Below the pieces are notes generated by a model. It ran no database searches, had not been told where the DNA came from, and saw nothing but the letters and a program-made list of their open reading frames with translations. A stretch of 40,060 bases of DNA from Escherichia phage IMM-002. The translations under genes were made by a program, and so were the position numbers. The stretch lies in the sequence record NC_048071.1. One strand, written 5' to 3'. This document shows positions 1 to 10,455 of this stretch, in pieces (the stretch's first letter is position 1; each line of letters starts with the position of its first letter).

Positions 1-189
1 TCTCACAGTTCAAGAACCTCAAGTCTCCCCATAGGGTCACTCTCAGTCCGACTCAAGGCCCTACCCATAGACCTTCGGTCTAAACCTCAAGTCATTGACC
101 CGAAGTCGCCCCGAAGTCTGGACTGATAGTGCCTATATCTTGTGGTTGGGACGATTGGTCGGGACTATATGTAGTGCCTCTGAGTCTCT
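1..189. repeat. Left direct terminal repeat (DTR), identical to 39872..40060
   Basis: First 189 nt match the last 189 nt of the window base for base (aligned by eye); T7-like genomes carry 160-230 bp DTRs. Confidence 0.9.
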
Positions 190-210
190 ATCTGTATCGA
201 CCTAATGTCA

Positions 211-305
211 ATCACCTACAGTCAACCAGCCTACAGTCTCACTACCTACAGTCATCTACCATCGGTAAAGCCATCACCTACAGCCAATAGACCTACAGTC
301 ACCAG
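211..305. repeat. Array of about 5 short direct repeats (A)CCTACAG(T/C)C next to the left DTR
   Basis: Copies at about 215, 230, 244, 277 and 292; analogous in position to the short repeats flanking the T7 terminal repeat. Confidence 0.6.
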
Positions 306-519
306 ACACTATGTCGACCTTCAGTTTATCAGAGTCCTAAGGTCTTAGACTCATAGGTTATCACATCCGGTCCGTTTAGCAGTCAGAGACCATAGCTGAC
401 TAGGGTTATCGTTGTTGGTGTCTGCCAACCGGACTCTTATTATCCATAGTACAGACTTAAAGTCAATCATCTGTAGTCGTCCTTATATAGTCACTGTACT
501 ACTGTATAAATTACCAGTG

Positions 520-548
520 TTGACAGTGGGTCTAACTTTTGGTTTAAT
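520..548 (+). promoter_or_regulatory. Candidate host sigma70 early promoter (TTGACA-17 nt-TTTAAT)
   Basis: -35 TTGACA 520..525, 17-nt spacer, -10 TTTAAT 543..548; position matches the T7 A1-A3 region. Confidence 0.55.
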
Positions 549-656
549 AGCTTCCGTCAACACGACACGGCAAACACCGGATAGTAGAGACACCGGGTCA
601 CACGGTTAAGTAGACAGCCTGATAAGTCATACGAACAACAGGCAGTGACAAATAGC

Positions 657-686
657 TTGACAAGATGTAGCGACTTAACGTAGTAT
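657..686 (+). promoter_or_regulatory. Candidate host sigma70 early promoter (TTGACA-18 nt-TAGTAT)
   Basis: -35 TTGACA 657..662, -10 TAGTAT 681..686; resembles T7 A2/A3 (TTGACA...TAAGAT). Confidence 0.55.
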
Positions 687-886
687 GCACCACATCGACA
701 CGGCACCAACGGTCGATAAGCAGTACCAGAGGCACCGCCTCGCCGCTCTTTAACAATCTGGATAAACTCTTAATGTGCGCCGATAGTAAGCGATTAACTA
801 CAGGGCCTTGAGTCTACCGCGAGACGGGCTTGACTTGAGCGACTCAGGGTCCTGACTGATAGTCACTAACTTAAAGGATACACATC

Positions 887-1339
887 ATGATTTACACTAA
901 CGAACCAGCCAACGTCTTCTATGTGCTCGTGTCTGCCGCTCGTGCTAACCTGTCTGACACGGTGAACATGGGCCGTCAGTTAGGCCTTAAGGCGCTGCTG
1001 CAAGCCGGACCAGAATACTACGGCGTGCTCGAATGCACCGGGCTTACTGGGTGCTACCGCGAGGAAGGGCAGGAAGTCGCCACTGAAGAGAGGACCTACC
1101 GTGTGCGCTGCGAGTCAAAGGCTCAAGCTATCAACGTTGCACGACTGGCCTGCAATGACTTTGAGCAAGACTGCGTGATGGTCTACAAGTCTCAGACTCA
1201 CACGGCTGGACTGATGTTCTGCAAGGGCTGGGACGGCTACAAGACCACAAGTCTGAACGGGTCATTCCAGCAAGTCGATGAACCAAAGGGCGAATGCTTC
1301 ACGAAAGACGCTGAAGGTCGCTTCTGGGAGGTGGTGTAA
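887..1339 (+). CDS. 0.3: S-adenosylmethionine-degrading enzyme (T3 gp0.3 SAMase-like anti-restriction protein)
   Basis: 150 aa, first gene after the early promoters, AAAGGA RBS; N-terminus MIYTNEPANVFYVLVSA and motifs TGLTGCYRE, VRCESKAQAINVARLACN, VYKSQTHTAGL match my recollection of T3 SAMase; not acidic like T7 Ocr. Confidence 0.65.
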   Translation: MIYTNEPANVFYVLVSAARANLSDTVNMGRQLGLKALLQAGPEYYGVLECTGLTGCYREEGQEVATEERTYRVRCESKAQAINVARLACNDFEQDCVMVYKSQTHTAGLMFCKGWDGYKTTSLNGSFQQVDEPKGECFTKDAEGRFWEVV

Positions 1340-1659
1340 TGATTGCCTATAAAATCTTCCGAATCCGCAAGGATGGAACGCTGGGAGCACTATTCATCAA
1401 TCGTAAGGCGGTCATTGAGGTAGGAGAATGGTACGAGGCAGAGAGCCATCCGACCAAAGGGTTTGCCTATCGTCCGGGCTGGCACTGCACCTTTGAGCAG
1501 AACGCGCCACATCTTAAGCTGGACCTGAAGTCAGGTGAGCGTAGGGCTTGGTTTAAGGTAGAGGTTGAGAACATAACGACCTACGACAGGCCAGAATCTC
1601 AGGGTGGTGCATGGGTATTAGCACAGCGTCTGCGGGTATTAGCACAGGTCTCAGAGTGA
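1339..1659 (+). CDS. Hypothetical early protein, translationally coupled to 0.3 (TAATG overlap)
   Basis: 106-aa ORF, GGAGG RBS 7 nt upstream, no recognised motif. Confidence 0.55.
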   Translation: MIAYKIFRIRKDGTLGALFINRKAVIEVGEWYEAESHPTKGFAYRPGWHCTFEQNAPHLKLDLKSGERRAWFKVEVENITTYDRPESQGGAWVLAQRLRVLAQVSE

Positions 1660-1724
1660 TAAACTACAGGTCATCCACATGGGTGGCCTGACTGATTGTC
1701 ACTTAACCATAAGGAAACAACAAG

Positions 1725-2459
1725 ATGAACGCACACGATAAAGTAATCATGAATAACCTGATGTCTCAGCTTCACGCTATAATCTGTAAGGCCGGTTATA
1801 AGGTGGAGTCGTTGGGGTCGGGCATCGCTGCGCAGGACCGCTGGGGAGCCGTTGAGGTCCTAGCCCGTGAGCATGGCTACAAGCTGTTAGGTCTGGGGCA
1901 CTTCGCCGCTGCCTTTGAGCATGAGGACCTGCCGGGGTATGCCATCAAGGTAGGCTTTAAGAAGGACGACTCAGGCGCTGCGTATGCTGCCTTCTGCCGA
2001 GAGAATGAGGGCATGGCTGGACTACCAGTCATCCATCTGGTCAAGCGCTTCAGCAGGGCTTACATGGTCGCTATGGACAAGTACCGCTCGCTTGAGGACA
2101 TCGGTGGGAACTACTGCCGGGAGGGCAAGACCTACGAGCAGCGAGTCTTAAACGTGTCGTGGCGTGTAGTCAACGCGATAATAGACCAGTGTGAACAGCC
2201 ATCCGAAGCACTGAGCTGGTGGCTTGACCAAGACGCTCGCATAGAGTTTGCACACGTCGAGACTCAGTACATCAAAGACCTTGCGCAGACTGCTAAGAAG
2301 ATTAACAGCTTCTTCTACGGGCTGGCATCGTTCGACACTCATCGCGCTAACGTGATGGTTGACAATAACGGGCGCTTGATAATCACGGACCCGGTGTCTT
2401 GGACTGCAAGCGACCATCAAGATGAGCTGCAAGGCAGGCTGAACGCAATAGCTGAGTGA
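1725..2459 (+). CDS. 0.7: Ser/Thr protein kinase, T7 gp0.7-like, kinase domain only
   Basis: 244 aa; GHFAAAFEHEDLPGYAIKVGFKKDDSGAAYAAFCR and ITDPVS match the T7 gp0.7 kinase core; C-terminal shut-off domain (about 115 aa in T7) absent. Confidence 0.85.
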   Translation: MNAHDKVIMNNLMSQLHAIICKAGYKVESLGSGIAAQDRWGAVEVLAREHGYKLLGLGHFAAAFEHEDLPGYAIKVGFKKDDSGAAYAAFCRENEGMAGLPVIHLVKRFSRAYMVAMDKYRSLEDIGGNYCREGKTYEQRVLNVSWRVVNAIIDQCEQPSEALSWWLDQDARIEFAHVETQYIKDLAQTAKKINSFFYGLASFDTHRANVMVDNNGRLIITDPVSWTASDHQDELQGRLNAIAE

Positions 2460-2525
2460 TAGGCGAGAGACCGCTACATCTAGTGGTCTCAAAGATTATC
2501 TCTCACAACATATAGGCAGGTGTAC

Positions 2526-2720
2526 ATGGGCTGGATACTTCTGGTCATCGGCTACGGGTTAATACTCGCAGTCATCACGAAAGACATCATCAAGGCACGT
2601 AAAGTCTACCGCTTCCAGTATGTGTCTCTGGGTCGCTGGACTGTAAGACAACCAAACGGACGCTTTATGCGTAACCTCGCAAACGTCTGGGACATCGCAA
2701 CCTTAGGGAGCAAACTGTAA
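2526..2720 (+). CDS. Small membrane protein (one N-terminal TM helix), hypothetical
   Basis: ATG 2526 (track ORF opens at GTG 2520); hydrophobic GWILLVIGYGLILAVI then basic tail; TAATG coupling to next gene. Confidence 0.4.
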   Translation: MGWILLVIGYGLILAVITKDIIKARKVYRFQYVSLGRWTVRQPNGRFMRNLANVWDIATLGSKL

Positions 2721-3142
2721 TGTGTAAGACCTGCGCTAAGTGTGGCGAGACCAAGAGTCTTGACCAGTTCGGCAGCAATAAGCGCAACAAGGATGGTCTG
2801 GACTATCGCTGCAAGACTTGCAGAAAGCAGGACGCCCAAGACAGGAGGCAGAAGGCACGAGAGGCCGGGACCTACAAGACGTCAAAGGCTGAAGAGAACC
2901 GAAAGCTGCGCTACGGTCTGGACCTAGAGGAGTACGAGAGCCTCCTACAGCAGCAGGGTGGAGTCTGCGCAATCTGCAAGGGTCAGTGTCCTACCGGGTG
3001 GAGACTGGCGGTGGACCACTCACACGAGACCGGGAAGGTGCGCGGACTGCTCTGCCTACAATGTAATACAGCGCTGGGCCAGTTCAAAGACTCACCGGAA
3101 CTACTGGCAAACGCAATCAAATATCTTCAGGAGAATCAATAA
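2720..3142 (+). CDS. HNH / Endonuclease VII-family nuclease (putative free-standing homing-type endonuclease)
   Basis: 140 aa; N-terminal Cys4 zinc ribbon (CKTCAKCGETK...YRCKTCR) plus GGVCAICKG...LAVDHSHETGKVRGLLCLQCNTALGQF, the Endo VII/HNH signature. Confidence 0.7.
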   Translation: MCKTCAKCGETKSLDQFGSNKRNKDGLDYRCKTCRKQDAQDRRQKAREAGTYKTSKAEENRKLRYGLDLEEYESLLQQQGGVCAICKGQCPTGWRLAVDHSHETGKVRGLLCLQCNTALGQFKDSPELLANAIKYLQENQ

Positions 3143-3393
3143 TGTACACGCACAAGACCTCACGTCACACCGTTCGTCAACAGCAGGAGCGCGACCGGGT
3201 ACTGCAAGCAAGACTCCGGGCCGAGGGCAATAAGGCCGAGCTGATGTGCCTGGCCTACGGTGGACGACCACGCACTGGCGATGGTAAACTTCTGGTCTCA
3301 GGCTGGAGGGCGATAGACCAGCGGTCATACATCAAGCACACGACCAAAGGTGACTTCAGTCATCTCCACGCTAACCCACTGATATGCAAGTAG
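3142..3393 (+). CDS. Hypothetical basic protein, coupled to the HNH gene (TAATG)
   Basis: 83-aa ORF, AGGAG RBS, no recognised domain. Confidence 0.4.
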   Translation: MYTHKTSRHTVRQQQERDRVLQARLRAEGNKAELMCLAYGGRPRTGDGKLLVSGWRAIDQRSYIKHTTKGDFSHLHANPLICK

Positions 3394-3398
3394 TTTGG

Positions 3399-3421
3399 AC
3401 TAAACTATCACTAAAGGACTC
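3399..3421 (+). promoter_or_regulatory. Phage-type promoter variant (TAAACTATCACTAAAGGAC) upstream of the RNAP gene
   Basis: Matches the phage promoter core except A at -2; predicted +1 G at 3416. Confidence 0.5.
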
Positions 3422-3496
3422 AAGGTCGAAAGACTCTAAGTCAGGACTGAAGTGAAAGACTTTAGTGATAAGACAACAGTTATAAGGACTTTAAGT

Positions 3497-6178
3497 ATGA
3501 GCGTCATCTCAATTGACAAGCACGACTTCTCTGATGTGTCGAATGCAATCGAACCATTCAACGTGCTGGCTGACCACTACGGTCAGGACCTAGCAGTAAA
3601 ACAGCTTCAGCTTGAGCATGAGGCGTACACTGAAGGCGAGCGACGTTTCATCAAGAACCTTGAGCGCCAAGCTGAGCGCGGGGAGCTGGCAGACAATCAG
3701 GTCGCCAAGCCACTGATGCAAACTCTGGTCCCGACCATCGCCAAGGCTGTTCGTGAGTGGCACGAAGGCCCGGACGGTAAGTCCTCGACCTCTCGCCCAA
3801 GCGTAGCGTTTACCATGCTGAGCACTGACGAGAAGGCTGTCAAAGACCGCTCTCTGCGAATCTCTGCTGAGTCTGCTGCGGTCATCATACTGAAAGTCAT
3901 CCTCAGCAAGCTGGTCAAGCCTGAGGGAATCCCGATAACGCCGATGGCCTCCGCGATTGGTCGCACACTTGAAGATGAAATCCGCTTCGGTCGCATCCGT
4001 GAGCAGGAGCAGGAGCACTTCAAGAAGACCATAGCTGAGAATCTGAAGAAACGTGCAGGAGCAAGCTACAAGAAAGCCTACATGCAAGCGGTCGAAGCCT
4101 CCATGCTGGAGCAAGGGCAACTGGCTGACGCTTGGGGGACTTGGAGTCCGACCGAGGCGGTACACGTAGGCATCAAGATGCTGGAGCTGGTCATCCAGTC
4201 CTCGCAACTGGTCGAACTGAAGCGCTACGGTGCGGGTAACGCTGCGGCAGACGTCGAGATGGTCCACCTGTCAGACTTCTGGGTCAAGAAGATGTCGCAA
4301 CGTGGCTTCTCACTGGCTGGCATCGCTCCGGTCTACCAACCTTGCGTCGTTCCACCTAAGCCGTGGACCGGGGTCGTGGGTGGTGGGTACTGGGCTAAGG
4401 GCCGAAGACCTCTCCCGCTGATTCGCTTAGGGTCCAAGGCTGCGGTCCAGCGCTACGAAGACGTGTACATGCCTGAAGTCTACGAGGCAGTGAATATCAT
4501 CCAGCAGACACCTTGGAAGGTGAACAAGAAGGTGCTGGACGTGGTGAACATGGTCGAGAAGCTGAACAACACGCCTATCGCTGACATCCCTCAGATGGAA
4601 CCGATGAAGCCTGAGGACTATGCAGGTGAGACCGAGGAAGAACTCAAAGCGTGGAAGAAAGCCGCTGCTGGTATCTATCGACGCGAGAAGGCCCGACAGT
4701 CCCGCCGTTTGTCCCTGAGCTTCATCGTCGGACAGGCGAACAAGTTCTCTCAGTTCAAGGCCATCTGGTTCCCATACAACATGGACTGGCGCGGTCGAGT
4801 CTATGCGGTCCCGATGTTCAACCCTCAGGGTAACGACATGCAGAAGGGCCTGCTGACTCTGGCAGTAGGCAAGCCAATCGGTGCGGACGGCTTCAAGTGG
4901 CTGAAGGTCCACGGTGCAAACTGCGCTGGTGTCGATAAAGTCACCTTCGAGGAGCGCATCAAGTGGGTCGAAGACAACCACGACAACATCCTCGCGGCTG
5001 CTAAGAGTCCGATGGATAGCATTGACTGGTGGGGTCAGTTAGACTCTCCGTTCTGCTTCCTCGCGTTCTGCTTCGAGTATGCTGGAGTCATGCACCACGG
5101 GCTGAGCTACTCCTGCTCACTGCCTATCGCGTTCGATGGGTCCTGCTCTGGGATTCAGCACTTCAGCGCGATGCTTCGTGACCACGTTGGTGGACATGCG
5201 GTCAACCTGACGCCAAGCGGGAAGGTCCAAGACATCTACCGCATTGTGTCAGACCGGGTGGAAGAACAGCTTAAGGAGCTGCTGGTCAACGGAAGTGACA
5301 ACGAGGTGAAGACCTTCGAGGACAAGAAGACAGGCGAGATTACTGAACGTCTGGTCCTTGGAACTCGCGAGCTGGCCCGTCAGTGGCTGACCTACGGGAT
5401 GTCACGCTCGGTCACTAAACGCTCGGTCATGACTCTGGCCTATGGGTCGAAGGAATACGGGTTCGCGGACCAAGTGTTTGAGGACACCGTGATGCCAGCG
5501 ATTGACAGCGGCAAGGGCGCGATGTTCACGGACCCAAGCCAAGCGTCACGCTTCATGGCTAAGATGATTTGGGATGCGGTAAGCGTGACCGTAGTTGCTG
5601 CGGTAGACGCGATGAAGTGGCTGCAAGGCGCTGCTAAACTGCTGGCTGCTGAGGTCAAGGACAAGAAGACAAAAGAGGTCCTTAAGCCTTGCCTCCCGGT
5701 TCACTGGGTAACGCCTGATGGCTTCCCGGTCTGGCAGGAATACCGAAAGAAGGACACCACCCGTCTGAACCTCCTGTTCCTTGGGTCGTTCAACCTGCAA
5801 CCGACAGTCAACAAAGGGTCTAAGAAAGAGCTGGACAAGCACAAGCAGGAGTCTGGTATCAGCCCTAACTTTGTACACTCACAGGACGGCAGTCACCTGA
5901 GGAAGACTGTGGTCCACACCCACCGCAAGTATGGCGTGATGTCCTTCGCAGTGATTCACGATAGCTTCGGGACCATCCCGGCTGACGCTGAGTTCCTGTT
6001 CAAGGGTGTCCGTGAGACGATGGTTGAGACCTACCGCGACAACGATGTGCTGCAAGACTTCTACGAGCAGTTCGCAGACCAGCTTCATGAGAGCCAGCGC
6101 GACAAGTTGCCCGAGCTGCCGAAGCGCGGTAAACTGAACATCGAAGACATTCTGTTATCTGACTTTGCATTCGCCTAA
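3497..6178 (+). CDS. 1: Single-subunit DNA-directed RNA polymerase (T7 gene 1 type)
   Basis: 893 aa from ATG 3497 (AAGGA RBS; track ORF opens at 3452); collinear with T7 RNAP incl. PWTGxxGGGYWA, AIWFPYNMDWRGRVYA, FCFLAFCFEYAGV, SGIQHFSAMLRD, HDSFGT and C-terminal SDFAFA. Confidence 0.97.
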   Translation: MSVISIDKHDFSDVSNAIEPFNVLADHYGQDLAVKQLQLEHEAYTEGERRFIKNLERQAERGELADNQVAKPLMQTLVPTIAKAVREWHEGPDGKSSTSRPSVAFTMLSTDEKAVKDRSLRISAESAAVIILKVILSKLVKPEGIPITPMASAIGRTLEDEIRFGRIREQEQEHFKKTIAENLKKRAGASYKKAYMQAVEASMLEQGQLADAWGTWSPTEAVHVGIKMLELVIQSSQLVELKRYGAGNAAADVEMVHLSDFWVKKMSQRGFSLAGIAPVYQPCVVPPKPWTGVVGGGYWAKGRRPLPLIRLGSKAAVQRYEDVYMPEVYEAVNIIQQTPWKVNKKVLDVVNMVEKLNNTPIADIPQMEPMKPEDYAGETEEELKAWKKAAAGIYRREKARQSRRLSLSFIVGQANKFSQFKAIWFPYNMDWRGRVYAVPMFNPQGNDMQKGLLTLAVGKPIGADGFKWLKVHGANCAGVDKVTFEERIKWVEDNHDNILAAAKSPMDSIDWWGQLDSPFCFLAFCFEYAGVMHHGLSYSCSLPIAFDGSCSGIQHFSAMLRDHVGGHAVNLTPSGKVQDIYRIVSDRVEEQLKELLVNGSDNEVKTFEDKKTGEITERLVLGTRELARQWLTYGMSRSVTKRSVMTLAYGSKEYGFADQVFEDTVMPAIDSGKGAMFTDPSQASRFMAKMIWDAVSVTVVAAVDAMKWLQGAAKLLAAEVKDKKTKEVLKPCLPVHWVTPDGFPVWQEYRKKDTTRLNLLFLGSFNLQPTVNKGSKKELDKHKQESGISPNFVHSQDGSHLRKTVVHTHRKYGVMSFAVIHDSFGTIPADAEFLFKGVRETMVETYRDNDVLQDFYEQFADQLHESQRDKLPELPKRGKLNIEDILLSDFAFA

Positions 6179-6190
6179 GGAGGCATCTAC

Positions 6191-6391
6191 ATGAAATTCG
6201 CACACAAGCAAACTGGCGTTAAAGGCGGTACTCAAATCGTGACCGTGACCGAGCACAATGGCAAAGGTCTGGTGAAGACCACGGTCATCCCAACCGAGAT
6301 GTCAAAGCAGCTTAACGTCCCATTCAAGTGGCTGGTGAAGCTGGTTCAAGAGCGACACGAGTCAGAACTCCGCGAGGTGGTAACGAAATGA
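6191..6391 (+). CDS. Hypothetical protein
   Basis: 66-aa ORF with strong TAAGGAGG RBS directly after RNAP stop. Confidence 0.55.
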   Translation: MKFAHKQTGVKGGTQIVTVTEHNGKGLVKTTVIPTEMSKQLNVPFKWLVKLVQERHESELREVVTK

Positions 6392-6465
6392 CAGACCTTA
6401 AGTGGCTGGCCCTATGGCTGGCCTTCTTAGCAGTGTACATCTTAATCCAACGCAGAAGAGGCTAA
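6388..6465 (+). CDS. 25-codon hydrophobic microprotein (MTDLKWLALWLAFLAVYILIQRRRG)
   Basis: ATGA overlap with upstream stop, GAGGTGG 7 nt upstream, one TM-like helix plus RRR anchor; below ORF-track size cut-off. Confidence 0.35.
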   Translation: MTDLKWLALWLAFLAVYILIQRRRG

Positions 6466-6471
6466 ACACCA

Positions 6472-6929
6472 TGTTCAACCGTAAACTGAAGGCACGTATC
6501 GCAGCACTTGAAGCAACCATACAGCGTCAGGACCACAACCTTGAGCTGGCTAATCGAGAGCAAGCACGGCTGAGGGCCAAACTACAAAAAGCTGAGACCA
6601 AGCGTGAAGTCGAGCCTTTACGTGTGAAGCGCATGGTCGGCCTGAAGTTCAAGGCGCTGTTCAACGGTATCTACCAGCCGACTGAGTTCAAGACCGGGCC
6701 GGGACCATGTGGAAAGACAGTAACGCACTTCACCACGAGCCGAGACGAGCGGACGCTGACCATCCACCAGCACCATACGGACGAGTCCAGCAAGAGCTTT
6801 GAGTATCGGCTGAGCGACATCGACGGTCGCATCCAGTATGACTACGAGCTGGTGCAGGTTTACGGTGAGGAGGCAGAGCGGGAACGTATGGTCCAAGCCC
6901 TCCGCAACAGACCGCGCTTCATAGCCTAA
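6472..6929 (+). CDS. Hypothetical protein with N-terminal coiled-coil
   Basis: ATG 6472 preferred (GTG 6402 in track overlaps the microprotein); KLKARIAALEATIQRQDHNLELANREQARLRAKLQKAE heptad-like region. Confidence 0.5.
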
Positions 6930-6947
6930 ACTATCACTATAGGATTA
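6925..6947 (+). promoter_or_regulatory. Phage RNAP promoter (phi1.1-equivalent)
   Basis: CTAAACTATCACTATAGGATT, +1 about 6942. Confidence 0.8.
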
Positions 6948-6992
6948 GACTCAAGGTCATGACTCAAAGTCGCGGCCTTCATGATTAACCCT
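6946..6992 (+). promoter_or_regulatory. Conserved stem-loop, candidate RNase III processing site (R1.1-equivalent)
   Basis: TAGACTCAAGGTCATGA...TCATGATTAA; lower stem GGUCAUGA/UCAUGAUU with G-U pairs, upper hairpin GAC-UCAAA-GUC. Confidence 0.5.
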
Positions 6993-7035
6993 GTAGCAAA
7001 GCTACTACCTAACTCATCCAATCAGGAGCTACACC

Positions 7036-7215
7036 ATGTATCAGACCATTATCAACTTCGAGCGCATCCGTGAACGTCAGCAGACTGAAGGCTACATTCC
7101 GAAGGGCCGTAAGCTGAACAAGACAAAGCGTGGCGGTGGCGTGAAGGGTGCTTTCCGTAACGCTGAAGGTAAGGACTCTCTGGTCAACCAAGAGAAGTAT
7201 TTCGTAGGAGCGTAA
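7036..7215 (+). CDS. 1.1: gp1.1-like small basic protein
   Basis: 59 aa (below track cut-off), AGGAG RBS; GRKLNKTKRGGG matches T7 gp1.1 KGRKLNKTKRDRSHKR. Confidence 0.6.
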   Translation: MYQTIINFERIRERQQTEGYIPKGRKLNKTKRGGGVKGAFRNAEGKDSLVNQEKYFVGA

Positions 7216-7217
7216 CC

Positions 7218-7466
7218 ATGAGCAGACGTTGGTTATTCGATGCGTCCACGAGCCAGTGGTCCTCGTTAGGCCGGACACACCGCGAGATGGGTGAATCAGG
7301 ACTTGAGGTCCGAATGGATGAGCTGCCTTGCTCCCGGACAACTCTGGTCAGAATCACTGAAGCAGATGGGAAGCCTCTGGTATCCCGCGAGTTTACCGAA
7401 CATGAAATCTTTAGCTGTGAGCAATGGTGCTTGCAGGTGCTGAACGACTATAGGAGCTGGAAATAA
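7218..7466 (+). CDS. 1.2: gp1.2-like protein (T7 gp1.2 inhibits host dGTPase)
   Basis: 82 aa, position between 1.1 and ligase; C-terminal NDYRSWK resembles T7 gp1.2 YDQLKDWK. Confidence 0.55.
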   Translation: MSRRWLFDASTSQWSSLGRTHREMGESGLEVRMDELPCSRTTLVRITEADGKPLVSREFTEHEIFSCEQWCLQVLNDYRSWK

Positions 7467-8551
7467 TGACTACTACACTCAAGACCAACCCGCATCGCGC
7501 TGTAGATTACTCTGAGTCCGGCGTTAAGAAAGCACTGGACGCAGCCGGGTCGCTGGAAGCTGAAGTGAAGTACGACGGTGTGCGTCTCAACATTCCGGTC
7601 CTTCGTGAAGGTGAGACCTACTGGCTGAGCCGTGAGTCGAAACCTCTGCCAGCCTTGGAGTGGATGAACTCTGAGTTAGGCAATGCTTGGACCCAAGCTG
7701 ACTGGCGCTGGTTCCTGCGTCAAGCTGGCTACGAAGGTGTGGGCCTGATGATTGACGGCGAGGTCATGGTCAAAGGTGTGGACTTCAACACATCCTCAGG
7801 CCTCATCAGAACGAAGTGGCTGAAGCCTAACAACGAGGCGTTCGCTGAATGTTATCCGGGCCGTGGCAAGAAGGTCCCGTTCTGGGTCGCCCGGTCCCGA
7901 CTTCAGGTTGTGGTCTACGGTGTCGTCGACATGACGACCATAGCCGACCCGAAAGCAGAAGGTCCTATCCATAGCGTCACCCGCCTGAAGGCCGAAGCTA
8001 TCGTCCCTCTCCTCCAGAAATACTTCCCGGAAATCGACTGGGTTCTGTCTGAGTCACACACGGTCTTTGACCTTGAGTCGCTCAACTCCCTGTACGAAGA
8101 GAAGCGTCTGGAAGGACACGAGGGTCTGGTAATCAAGGACCCGTTGGGTAACTACAAGCGTGGCAAGAAGTCAGGCATGTGGAAGATGAAGCCTGAGGAC
8201 ACCATCGACGGGACTGTATGTGGCCTCGTGTGGGGGACTCAGGGTAAGGCCAACGAAGGCAAGGTCATCGGCTTTGAGGTGCTGCTGGAAGATGGCATGG
8301 TGGTCAACGCCTGTGGTCTGACCGAGGAGCAGAAGGATGAGTTCACCGCCAAGGTTAAAGAGGACACTCTCGCCGCTGTGGGCATATTTGCTCCGTATGG
8401 TATTGGCGGTAACGAACCCTGCTTCGATAACCCATACGAAGGCTGGCAGGTTGAAGTCCTCTTCATGGAGCGCTTCCCGGACGGCTCCCTGCGCCACCCA
8501 AGTTTCAACCAGTGGCGTGGCACGGAAGACAATCCGACCATTAAGAGCTAA
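7466..8551 (+). CDS. 1.3: ATP-dependent DNA ligase
   Basis: 361 aa; adenylation motif EVKYDGVR, YWLSR, MIDGEVMVKGVDFNTSSGLIRTKW, EGHEGLVIKDP, KRGKKSGMWKMKPE, GSLRHPSF collinear with T7 ligase. Confidence 0.96.
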   Translation: MTTTLKTNPHRAVDYSESGVKKALDAAGSLEAEVKYDGVRLNIPVLREGETYWLSRESKPLPALEWMNSELGNAWTQADWRWFLRQAGYEGVGLMIDGEVMVKGVDFNTSSGLIRTKWLKPNNEAFAECYPGRGKKVPFWVARSRLQVVVYGVVDMTTIADPKAEGPIHSVTRLKAEAIVPLLQKYFPEIDWVLSESHTVFDLESLNSLYEEKRLEGHEGLVIKDPLGNYKRGKKSGMWKMKPEDTIDGTVCGLVWGTQGKANEGKVIGFEVLLEDGMVVNACGLTEEQKDEFTAKVKEDTLAAVGIFAPYGIGGNEPCFDNPYEGWQVEVLFMERFPDGSLRHPSFNQWRGTEDNPTIKS

Positions 8552-8562
8552 CTGAACGTCAA

Positions 8563-8597
8563 CCCAGTGGTCTTCGCGGACTGCTGGGTTTCTTTGT
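8563..8597 (+). terminator. Rho-independent terminator, early terminator TE-equivalent
   Basis: GC-rich hairpin CCCAGTGGTC-TTCGCG-GACTGCTGGG followed by TTTCTTTGTG, directly after ligase as in T7. Confidence 0.7.
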
Positions 8598-8618
8598 GTC
8601 TGGACTCCGGGCCGCTGG

Positions 8619-8641
8619 ACTTAACTATCACTGTAGGACCA
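8619..8641 (+). promoter_or_regulatory. Phage RNAP promoter
   Basis: TTAACTATCACTGTAGGACC, +1 about 8636. Confidence 0.75.
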
Positions 8642-8673
8642 CACCAGGTCCAAGACTTTAAGAGGAGAAACCT

Positions 8674-8928
8674 ATGTCTAAGAACTTAATGTTCAACCGT
8701 TTCAGTCAGACCTTCCACCTGTCACACAATCCGTTCGCTTGCATTAAGCGTAACGAGAAGGTGGGCTTCTTCGGGAAGGCCGTTAAGCTGGCACCTACGG
8801 TCTACGCTCTGATTGTTCCGAGCAAAGTAGAAGAGGCTCGCCAGAAGAAAGAGACCAGTGTACCAGTGGTCTACACCAAGTGGCCTCGCGTTCGTCTGGT
8901 GCTGGAGTTCATCAAGGAGGAGCTCTAA
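8674..8928 (+). CDS. Hypothetical protein (gp1.6 position)
   Basis: 84-aa ORF with GAGGAG RBS after promoter; assignment positional only. Confidence 0.5.
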   Translation: MSKNLMFNRFSQTFHLSHNPFACIKRNEKVGFFGKAVKLAPTVYALIVPSKVEEARQKKETSVPVVYTKWPRVRLVLEFIKEEL

Positions 8929-9305
8929 TGGCTCATTATTGTGTGGACTGTCAGAACGACCATACCGAATGCACCTGCCACCTGAAGTATCAGACACCAG
9001 CGCCAAGCTGTTCGCCAACGTACACTGGTGGGTCTGCCGATTACTACCAAGTGCCTATCACCAAGACTACGACTCCCGGTCGACCGGACTACATCGCTGA
9101 ATGCAACGACATTATCGAGGCTCTCGGTATGAACTTTGCAGAAGGCAATGCGTTCAAGGCCATCTGGCGTCGGGCTGCTCAACGGACCTTAGGTCTGCGT
9201 AAGGCTGGTGCTAAGGACGATGGACTGTATGATGCTGAGAAGGTCGAGTTCTTCGGCGCTCGTCTGGTAGCACAAAGCAAGGCGGCAGGTCATGACTCCA
9301 AGTGA
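8928..9305 (+). CDS. DUF3310-type protein (gp1.7 position)
   Basis: 125 aa from ATG 8928 (track ORF opens at 8880); PDYIAECNDIIEALGMNFAEGNAFKAIWRRA...GLYDAEKVEFF fits the DUF3310 pattern as I recall it. Confidence 0.5.
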   Translation: MAHYCVDCQNDHTECTCHLKYQTPAPSCSPTYTGGSADYYQVPITKTTTPGRPDYIAECNDIIEALGMNFAEGNAFKAIWRRAAQRTLGLRKAGAKDDGLYDAEKVEFFGARLVAQSKAAGHDSK

Positions 9306-9383
9306 ATGGTGCGAGATGATGTTTGAGAAGACGGGTAACGTCGACTATCTCGAAATGTATAACCTCTGGAAAGGGAGAGGACT

Positions 9384-9560
9384 ATGACCATCTATAAGGG
9401 CATCTTCGGGTCTCTGTACGCAGTGAACCAACACGGAGTCGTCTGCGTTAAGCCGGACGGTGGCGAGTGGTGCGCATCACATTACAGTGTCGAGGGATTC
9501 CAAGACGCTATTGATAAAGGCTATGTGACGGAGGTGGTCGATGACCAAGGAGTCAACTGA
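9384..9560 (+). CDS. Hypothetical small protein (gp1.8 position)
   Basis: 58-aa ORF, GGGAGAGG RBS, overlaps gene 2 start. Confidence 0.4.
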
Positions 9561-9711
9561 GAAGAAGTATATCGTGGAACTTGAAGGGCGCGTTCAGTCC
9601 TTTGACGTCCCGGTCTACGCTAAGTCTCTGGACGAGGCGACCCTGAAGGCTCAGGAATATGAAGATGCTGGTTTCGTGGTAGGCCGCATCCGACCTGAGC
9701 TGCACGACTAA
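9541..9711 (+). CDS. 2: Gp2-like inhibitor of host RNA polymerase
   Basis: 56 aa (below track cut-off); [32 protein letters not shown] matches T7 Gp2 [33 protein letters not shown]. Confidence 0.75.
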
Positions 9712-9729
9712 ACTATCACTTTAGGAACA
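9707..9729 (+). promoter_or_regulatory. Phage RNAP promoter (phi2.5-equivalent)
   Basis: CTAAACTATCACTTTAGGAAC, +1 about 9724. Confidence 0.75.
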
Positions 9730-9756
9730 CCTTAACTTTAACTAGGAGATTTACCG

Positions 9757-10455
9757 ATGGCTAAAGAGCAACTGAAAACTTTCACCACTCCGGTCGCTGG
9801 TCTGGTCGAGCCGTATAGCTGGCTGAACAAGTCAGACACCAAGTTCAACGAGCGTGGTGAGCACAAAGTCAACCTGACGTTCGACCTGAGCGACCCGAAA
9901 GTTCGCAAGATGATTGACGTCTTGCAGAAGATTCACGACGATGCGTATGCGAAAGCACTCGCAGACCACGAGAAGAACCCCCCTCAGGTTCAGCGTGGCA
10001 AGAAGCCTATCGAACCGCGTGAAGGCGATATGCCGTGGATTGAGAACGGTGATGGTACTGTTACCCTGAAGTTCAAATGCTTTGCGTCTTACTTGAAAGA
10101 CGGCAAGTCCGAGCCTATCGTATTACGGTTCTACGACACCGATGCTAAACTCATCCGTGACGTCCCGAATATTGGCACCGGGTCTAAGCTGAAAGTCAAG
10201 TTCAAAGTCCTGCCGTTCAAGTGGAACGCTGCGACTGGTGCAAGCGTTAAGCTGCAACTCGAATCCGTTCTGCTGGTCGAACTCAAAGAGTGGTCCGGCG
10301 ATGGTACTGGTGGTGATGGTGGCTGGGGTGACGATGAAGACATCGGCTCCGGTGGCTACAAAGCGTCTACTGACGGTGACTTCGGGTCTGATGACTTCGG
10401 TGAAGATGCCGATGGTGGCGATGACTCTGCGTCCGGTGGCGACTACGACTTCTAA
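9757..10455 (+). CDS. 2.5: Single-stranded DNA-binding protein
   Basis: 232 aa; GKKPIEPREGDMPW, NGDGT, KFKCFASY, WNAATGASVKLQLESVLLVEL and acidic C-terminal tail ending DYDF, as in T7 gp2.5. Confidence 0.95.
   Translation: MAKEQLKTFTTPVAGLVEPYSWLNKSDTKFNERGEHKVNLTFDLSDPKVRKMIDVLQKIHDDAYAKALADHEKNPPQVQRGKKPIEPREGDMPWIENGDGTVTLKFKCFASYLKDGKSEPIVLRFYDTDAKLIRDVPNIGTGSKLKVKFKVLPFKWNAATGASVKLQLESVLLVELKEWSGDGTGGDGGWGDDEDIGSGGYKASTDGDFGSDDFGEDADGGDDSASGGDYDF

Follow-up and report, generated by a model that had tools for sequence, protein, structure and literature searches.

A short open reading frame (ORF) of 25 codons, here called the micro-ORF, lies in the genome of Escherichia phage IMM-002 (Kayfunavirus, Studiervirinae; sequence record NC_048071.1), between a 66-aa gene that follows the phage RNA polymerase (RNAP) gene, gene 1, and a 152-aa accessory gene. 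It was studied in a window of 40,060 nucleotides, which is the whole stretch of DNA analysed and to which all coordinates refer unless another locus is named (Table 1). The start codon of the micro-ORF overlaps the stop codon of the 66-aa gene as ATGA, and GAGGTGG, a sequence resembling a Shine-Dalgarno (SD) element, precedes it by 7 nt (spacer taacgaa). A preliminary description of this DNA had pointed out the overlap and the GAGGTGG spacing, both of which are borne out by reading the sequence, and had given the peptide, for which the ORF list holds the same frame and translation. The ATG of the 152-aa gene is at 6471 and not, as first stated, at 6473; it lies 5 nt past the micro-ORF stop.

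By comparative criteria the micro-ORF is a true coding gene, because its frame is open, its length of 25 codons is kept and signs of purifying selection are confined to its own frame. The proposal that it represents a genuine short coding gene thus stands. Within it, the two copies of TGGCTGGCC encode W-L-A twice in the predicted hydrophobic helix (W6-L7-A8 and W10-L11-A12), and this repeat forms the sole stable hairpin of the centroid fold. The repeat hints at an origin of the hydrophobic segment through a small duplication.

Table 1. Features at and around the micro-ORF of phage IMM-002 (window coordinates)
Feature	Position	Strand	Remarks
Upstream 66-aa gene, phrog_8082	6191..6391	+	Usual coupling partner; PHROG E = 1.2e-38
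GAGGTGG, Shine-Dalgarno-like	6374..6380	+	Inside 3′ end of upstream gene
Micro-ORF, 25 codons + TAA	6388..6465	+	Encodes MTDLKWLALWLAFLAVYILIQRRRG (sequence and ORF list)
Start ATG and stop TAA of micro-ORF	6388-6390 and 6463-6465	+	Read from sequence
ATGA start/stop overlap with upstream gene	6388..6391	+	Upstream TGA at 6389-6391
9-nt direct repeat TGGCTGGCC	6403-6411 and 6415-6423	+	Exact; period 12 nt
AGAAGAGG	6454..6461	+	Arg-Arg-Gly codons 23-25 of micro-ORF; also SD sequence of downstream gene
Downstream 152-aa accessory gene, T3 gene 1.05 family	6471..6929	+	PF25755, E = 6.1e-26; phrog_8103
First consensus phage-RNAP promoter after gene 1, ctaaactatcactataggattag	6925..6947	+	TCACTATAGG at 6934-6943
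TE-like terminator (T7/T3) after ligase gene	8561..8590	+	13-bp stem, then T-rich tail

Conservation, selection and start/stop overlap

Conservation was judged from an unbiased anchor, the RNAP C-terminus, which is independent of what follows it and which retrieved 31 IMG/VR loci. The micro-ORF is intact at exactly 25 codons in every anchored locus with RNAP identity of at least 89% (27/27), and its start is ATG in all anchored copies except one, which has GTG. The expectation that the ORF would be conserved in related phages is thereby confirmed. Seven loci lack it: six in which the RNAP is 57-68% identical, distant T7-like loci that hold no micro-ORF homologue, and L033, a contig-end fragment with only 39 RNAP residues. 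Unrelated small hydrophobic ORFs with an SD sequence, such as MIPVLVFFVFLTYCVFVMTGEQRCPF..., were seen in other slots, in the early-to-middle regions of more distant T7-like phages (L029 4413-4538, L032 4440-4568 and L031 4169-4327), so small membrane proteins recur across this phage family without homology.

The micro-ORF is also present in K1F, in ST1749 and in the Citrobacter phage CR8 (genus Caroctavirus). The CR8 version, MTYLQLFALWMGALAVFTLIQQRRG (L024 3397-3474, the same as L064 598-675), is not annotated in NC_023548 and keeps its frame at only 49/78 nucleotide identity to the window. A scan of IMG/VR with a degenerate motif for the C-terminal half of the peptide returned the same Kayfunavirus and CR8 contigs only; 13 further metagenome contigs found by a motif scan all carry an intact micro-ORF (13/13), although motif-based sets can find intact copies only and the fair test is the RNAP-anchored one. 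The same scan of 100,044 bacterial and archaeal genomes gave no match and hence no host homologue, and tblastn of the peptide against the phage collection gave none either, probably owing to the low-complexity filter and the short query. By blastn, 214 GenBank phage records cover at least 80% of a segment that runs from the RNAP end through the partner gene to the micro-ORF; other Studiervirinae genera match the RNAP end only. With at least 214 GenBank genomes carrying the segment, the micro-ORF is a core gene of a large phage group, and many of the carriers were isolated as therapeutic agents, the target bacteria being E. coli K1, Salmonella Typhi, Klebsiella and Enterobacter.

Pooling of all sources gave 38 unique nucleotide versions and 22 peptide variants; the two main sequence types are KW..AF..Y and QL..GA..F. 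In the micro-ORF frame, which has stops in 0/38 versions, the proportions of synonymous and non-synonymous differences (pS and pN) are 0.36 and 0.10, respectively (pN/pS 0.28). Alternative frame +1 has pS 0.17, pN 0.17 and pN/pS 0.97, with stops in 38/38 versions, and frame +2 has pS 0.13, pN 0.17 and pN/pS 1.24, with stops in 12/38. The adjacent upstream gene gives 0.27-0.28 over the same genomes, a value equal to that of the micro-ORF. Variable columns fall mostly at third codon positions (19/24, against 13 at first and 8 at second positions). Between the window and CR8, pS reaches 0.80, with synonymous sites near saturation, and pN is 0.28. No Rfam family matches the region and its fold is no more stable than that of shuffled sequence (z-score +1.4), which argues against an RNA element. 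Because in-frame pN/pS is low and no RNA signal is seen, we conclude from these comparisons that the peptide sequence itself is under selection.

The preliminary description had also held that the start of the micro-ORF is coupled to the upstream stop, and an overlap is found in every relative. Across relatives and gene contexts the start lies over the upstream stop in all 38 versions, as in an overlapping gene pair: 36/38 have ATGA or GTGA alone and two CR8-type versions also have TAATG. An SD-like core is found within -17 to -5 in 34/38 versions; the CR8-type versions lack it and have the TAATG overlap only. From these arrangements we infer that the ATGA overlap would serve as a site of translational coupling by termination-reinitiation. 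The phrog_8082 partner gene always ends in TGA, whereas the long plus-strand frames of the window end in TAA (22), TGA (12) or TAG (3), and this constancy of the upstream TGA is consistent with a constraint that keeps the ATG. In an 84-aa homologue of the 6191-6391 product (P0111), the upstream TGA has become TGC and the gene reads 18 codons into the micro-ORF region; the ATG of the micro-ORF is kept and its second residue is Pro.

Three unrelated genes occupy the upstream position, namely the 66-71-aa phrog_8082 protein (in most phages), a 45-aa ORF in CR8 and the RNAP gene itself. CR8 carries the unrelated 45-aa 'gene 1.05' upstream of its micro-ORF and a predicted promoter shortly after it. 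In metagenome contig L076 the RNAP stop overlaps the micro-ORF start directly (gccTAATGaca; micro-ORF at 847-924). The 187-aa gene that follows in this contig (930-1493) opens with a hydrophobic segment of its own (MFTTYSFTLTVLVIVLLVLLIRS...), while the N-termini elsewhere are coiled-coil.

The downstream side varies too. The N-terminus of the downstream gene is mosaic among relatives, and the gene is absent altogether in 18/38 versions, K1F included, in which a phage promoter, ctaaactatcactatagg, lies within a few bases of the micro-ORF. Because it is kept without the downstream gene and behind three unrelated upstream genes, the micro-ORF is the most stable element of the slot; it neither serves as a leader to the gene that follows nor forms an extra part of the gene in front. 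In phage Peacock the downstream gene is split by an in-frame stop (L002 887-1003 and 1049-1348), and some records name the 6471-6929 gene 'microtubule-binding protein'. The PF25755 hidden Markov model (HMM) matches this gene and not the micro-ORF.

The usual partner, the 66-aa product, has 155 homologues, all on ~40-kb Kayfunavirus-type contigs and none of them named. Its AF2 model (pLDDT 93.9) has three beta strands and a long helix; a fold search gave no PDB match at E <= 0.001 and hence no functional clue. No co-variation of micro-protein type with the type of upstream C-terminus was seen.

Probable early expression, predicted topology and proposed mode of action

No exact TCACTATAGG phage-promoter site occurs between 3408 and 6934, and the only sigma-70-like promoters in positions 1-10000 are at 657-686 (+) and 466-439 (-). 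The consensus promoter at 6925..6947 bounds the stretch for which host RNAP is the sole transcribing enzyme. The TE-like terminator matches T7 and T3 TE in position and closes the early operon that holds the micro-ORF. Because this promoter and terminator layout matches the early operons of T7 and T3, we infer that the micro-ORF is expressed early, on the host RNA polymerase transcript that also carries gene 1. Just 5′ of gene 1, at 3408-3417, stands TCACTAAAGG, a promoter-like sequence one mismatch from the TCACTATAGG core; an active promoter there would bring gene 1 and the micro-ORF under the phage polymerase as well. The early region also has, at 2720-3142 and just 5′ of the RNAP gene, an ORF that matches the recombination endonuclease VII family (PF02945, E = 1.7e-25) and probably represents a homing-endonuclease-type insertion.

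The product had been described as one hydrophobic helix with a triple-Arg anchor, and computation of hydrophobicity and charge agrees, the basic anchor being C-terminal. Over core residues 6-20 (WLALWLAFLAVYILI) the Kyte-Doolittle (KD) mean is 2.49 and Hessa dG sums to -2.97 kcal/mol; the 19-residue window averages KD 1.74. Against a background of 849 start/stop combinations of 20-45 aa in the six frames of the window, a KD mean of at least 2.2 over 17 residues recurs at just three other loci, each of them on the non-coding minus strand. A chance origin is nevertheless disfavoured more by conservation, the stronger argument, than by these hydrophobicity statistics. Charge is asymmetric in all variants, from -1 to 0 at the N-terminus and from +2 to +3 at the C-terminus. 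The micro-protein is thus predicted to combine one spanning segment with asymmetric charge, as small single-pass membrane proteins do, and we read it as a putative N-out/C-in, single-helix microprotein of the inner membrane that would be inserted post-translationally.

Taken together, the micro-ORF is probably best explained as a genuine early gene of Kayfunavirus and CR8, coupled to its upstream neighbour, whose single-pass microprotein acts by helix-helix contact. On this explanation, host RNA polymerase would transcribe the micro-ORF together with gene 1. Ribosomes terminating at the upstream stop would re-initiate at the overlapping AUG as the main route of translation, assisted in Kayfunavirus by the GAGG-type SD sequence. 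The 25-residue peptide would be released before leaving the ribosomal exit tunnel and would therefore insert into the membrane after translation. MTDL, the N-terminal end, is short and slightly acidic and would be moved across to the periplasm, approximately residues 4-21 would form one transmembrane helix, and the Q-R-R-R-G tail would stay in the cytoplasm according to the positive-inside rule. The least certain step is function: by analogy with similarly small microproteins of bacteria and phages, the micro-protein most likely works by helix-helix contact, either with itself or with an inner-membrane protein conserved in Enterobacterales, in a role in host take-over or exclusion that would be neither enzymatic nor structural. 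The function is open to direct testing by a single-base knockout, since G6390A (ATGA to ATAA) would remove the start and leave the upstream protein unchanged.

A narrower version of this explanation is possible, but we hold it only tentatively. The micro-protein would be a dedicated early factor for host take-over or exclusion, universal in Kayfunavirus and Caroctavirus, whose transmembrane helix binds a conserved inner-membrane machine of Enterobacterales. Candidate targets would be a component of the divisome or elongasome, a membrane-bound defence effector or the DNA entry route of a superinfecting phage. If this were true, the micro-protein would rank among the smallest phage effectors for which a host target is defined.

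Several points weigh against the proposed explanation. The evidence for a specific interface is weak: clustering of conservation on one helix face is not significant (permutation p = 0.27) and lends no positive support to a binding interface, and rare variants place Asp at position 8 (A8D; L012 3475-3552) and Arg at position 12 (G12R; L065 and L072), both on the same helix face, putting charge into the core at otherwise conserved positions. A third rare variant is Q21T (phage ST1749; L078 1507-1584). At no more than 15-17 residues, the strictly hydrophobic core is short for spanning a bilayer. As to coding status, the pairwise pN/pS counts share ancestry and their events are not independent, start-codon conservation is not independent evidence because the upstream Lys codon and TGA partly fix the ATG, and part of the 3′ conservation (codons 18-25, 6439-6465) acts at the nucleotide level. 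Literature searches found no ribosome profiling and no proteomics or peptide data for Kayfunavirus.

The strongest competing explanation, although we consider it unlikely, is a bilayer-active peptide resembling a type I toxin or a viroporin, which would oligomerise and depolarise or permeabilise the inner membrane without a specific protein partner and would thereby shut off the host, exclude competing phages or prime lysis. The size and shape of the micro-protein, a hydrophobic helix with a basic C-terminus, recall the Ldr, ShoB and TisB class; it carries the internal WLA..WLA repeat, and both the lack of a significant one-sided conservation pattern, as a partner interface would leave, and the rare Asp and Arg on one helix face would fit such a peptide. 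T7-type phages already encode a late holin, and the helix holds no conserved polar or charged residues able to line a pore, which favours specific helix binding over a pore. Early expression with the RNAP gene, alongside other T7-type host-interaction genes, points the same way, since depolarisation at that stage would be costly for a phage that needs host energy throughout its cycle. Nor was the antisense promoter of type I toxin loci found.

Far less probable is that a nucleotide-level element is conserved and the open frame is incidental, the candidates being DNA close to a promoter, a junction at which exchangeable modules recombine and the next gene's ribosome-binding site. Synonymous sites diverge half as much over codons 18-25 (pS 0.19) as over codons 2-17 (pS 0.40), AGAAGAGG provides the next gene with its SD sequence, and the micro-ORF lies exactly at the boundary of the downstream module that is swapped or lost. 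The rare Arg codons AGA-AGA are kept even in phages without the downstream gene, and the extra constraint on codons 18-25 probably stems from a recombination junction, from use as SD sequence by the next gene, or from the two combined. An element of this kind would not, however, account for variation that is mostly at third positions, for low pN/pS in the micro-ORF frame only, or for a frame that stays open in 38 versions while one alternative frame always contains stops. Nor would it account for the intact frame of CR8 at its low nucleotide identity, and no RNA structure signal is seen.

It is still harder to credit that the downstream gene itself begins in this region, at GTG 6402 or ATG 6414 in another frame, and that the micro-ORF is no gene. 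The downstream frame is indeed open from 6402 in the window, and the records of phi1_146013, EV136_1 and vB_Ecl_MII_004 annotate N-terminally extended genes. This is frame +2, with its pN/pS above 1 and its stops in 12 of the 38 versions; moreover, the downstream gene is missing or different in many relatives that bear the micro-ORF, and it has a conserved ATG and SD sequence of its own. Least likely of all is a -1 ribosomal frameshift at the stop that would add the hydrophobic segment to the upstream protein, giving a membrane-anchored 91-aa isoform and no free 25-mer: the micro-ORF does abut the upstream gene in its -1 frame and is open for 20 codons 5′ of the ATG in the window, but there is no X XXY YYZ slippery heptamer (C/G-AAA-TGA in all versions), several relatives have a stop 3-5 codons ahead of the ATG that closes the open stretch, and the micro-ORF is kept behind three unrelated upstream genes, RNAP included.

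Annotation of the locus in sequence records

The micro-ORF had been called unannotated, which holds for most relatives but not for IMM-002 itself or for phage GA2A. An exact-sequence look-up found the peptide to be identical to NCBI ATI16973.1 / YP_009812842.1 of Escherichia phage IMM-002, so that a GenBank and RefSeq protein already exists, and the GA2A homologue carries the annotation GA2A_08A. Of 60 records, a spread sample drawn from the 137 that match the inner 67 nt, ~70% have no feature at the micro-ORF, K1F and CR8 among them. Where relatives' records do place a feature at the locus, it may be the micro-ORF or the downstream gene with an added 5′ stretch, or else a coding sequence (CDS) read in a wrong frame, and one wrong-frame CDS across the micro-ORF runs through the promoter. 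GenBank examples of such miscalls are L037 609-725 (MZ234011), L001 815-1330, L038 621-854 and L036 556-672. These look like systematic errors of gene callers.

The NCBI record names the peptide 'DUF2842 domain-containing protein'. Membership of this family was judged by a match to the family HMM at or above the Pfam gathering score, and it was rejected, as hmmscan against Pfam at E <= 10 gave no DUF2842 match for the peptide or for two of its variants. The sole Pfam output for the peptide was DUF5325 (E = 0.17), at 12 bits against a cut-off of 25. DUF2842 and the micro-protein are both hydrophobic, but otherwise no HMM match links them, and the name in the source record looks spurious. Searches with the peptide in NCBIfam, PHROGs, PADLOC and PDB sequences gave no significant match. 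The micro-ORF is not discussed in the IMM-002 paper, and literature searches on IMM-002, Kayfunavirus, K1F, DUF2842 and superinfection exclusion in Autographiviridae found no mention of it. The resulting correction to annotation is small but concrete: most records skip the micro-ORF or call a wrong frame there, and the DUF name in the source record lacks support.

Relation to T7, T3 and other small membrane proteins

The slot had been described as lacking a T7 counterpart, and this is upheld: only the promoters phi1.1A and phi1.1B lie between T7 genes 1 and 1.1. T3 has gene 1.05 in this slot, which is related to the downstream gene of the window and not to the micro-ORF, and the slot is thus not wholly without precedent.

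Closer in kind are the annotated ORFs T7 gene 1.5 (29 aa), T3 gene 1.5 (25 aa) and T7 gene 1.4 (51 aa), which are likewise tiny, N-terminally hydrophobic and located in the early-to-middle region. T3 gp1.5, at 25 residues, even has the same length as the micro-protein. Membership of this group was nevertheless rejected, since neither T3 gp1.5 nor T7 gp1.4 gave a BLASTP alignment with the micro-protein and since the position differs: the T7 and T3 genes lie after TE, behind a phage promoter of their own (phi1.5), and not between genes 1 and 1.1. Unlike the micro-ORF, none of them is start/stop-coupled to the gene before it. The C-terminal tail is acidic in the gene 1.5 proteins and basic in the micro-protein, which implies an opposite or different topology; T7 1.4 has a hydrophobic C-terminus that is not acidic. 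In the loci compared here, T7 1.4/1.5 are at L039 2109-2381 and T3 1.5 at L063 2715-2792, just after the early terminator. No ORF comparable to these was found after the TE-like terminator of the window (8561-8590).

Type I toxins such as Ldr, ShoB, TisB and Ibs are similar in length to the micro-protein, and some of them, for example Ldr, end in a basic cluster. In contrast to their loci, the micro-ORF has no opposite-strand promoter and is coupled inside a phage operon. A type I toxin-antitoxin system is not supported, as no sign of an antisense RNA was found: there is no sigma-70-like promoter near 6388-6465 on either strand, and no Rfam match.

Bacterial regulatory microproteins such as AcrZ, MgrB, MgtS and Caulobacter SidA, none longer than 50 aa, each have a single transmembrane helix and a short charged tail and exert their effect on a larger inner-membrane protein, which they bind. 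By analogy, microproteins of this type serve here as the working model for the micro-protein. They bear no sequence relationship to it (Pfam, NCBIfam and PDB searches being empty), and the micro-ORF differs from them in being phage-encoded and early-expressed, with a motif absent from the bacterial and archaeal genomes scanned. As T7 and T3 are already known to carry tiny hydrophobic ORFs, the micro-ORF is not a new kind of system. It is real and mostly overlooked, an early gene of Kayfunavirus and Caroctavirus that GenBank already lists for IMM-002, and as a strictly conserved, coupled early microprotein it joins the list of host-interaction genes of the T7 group.

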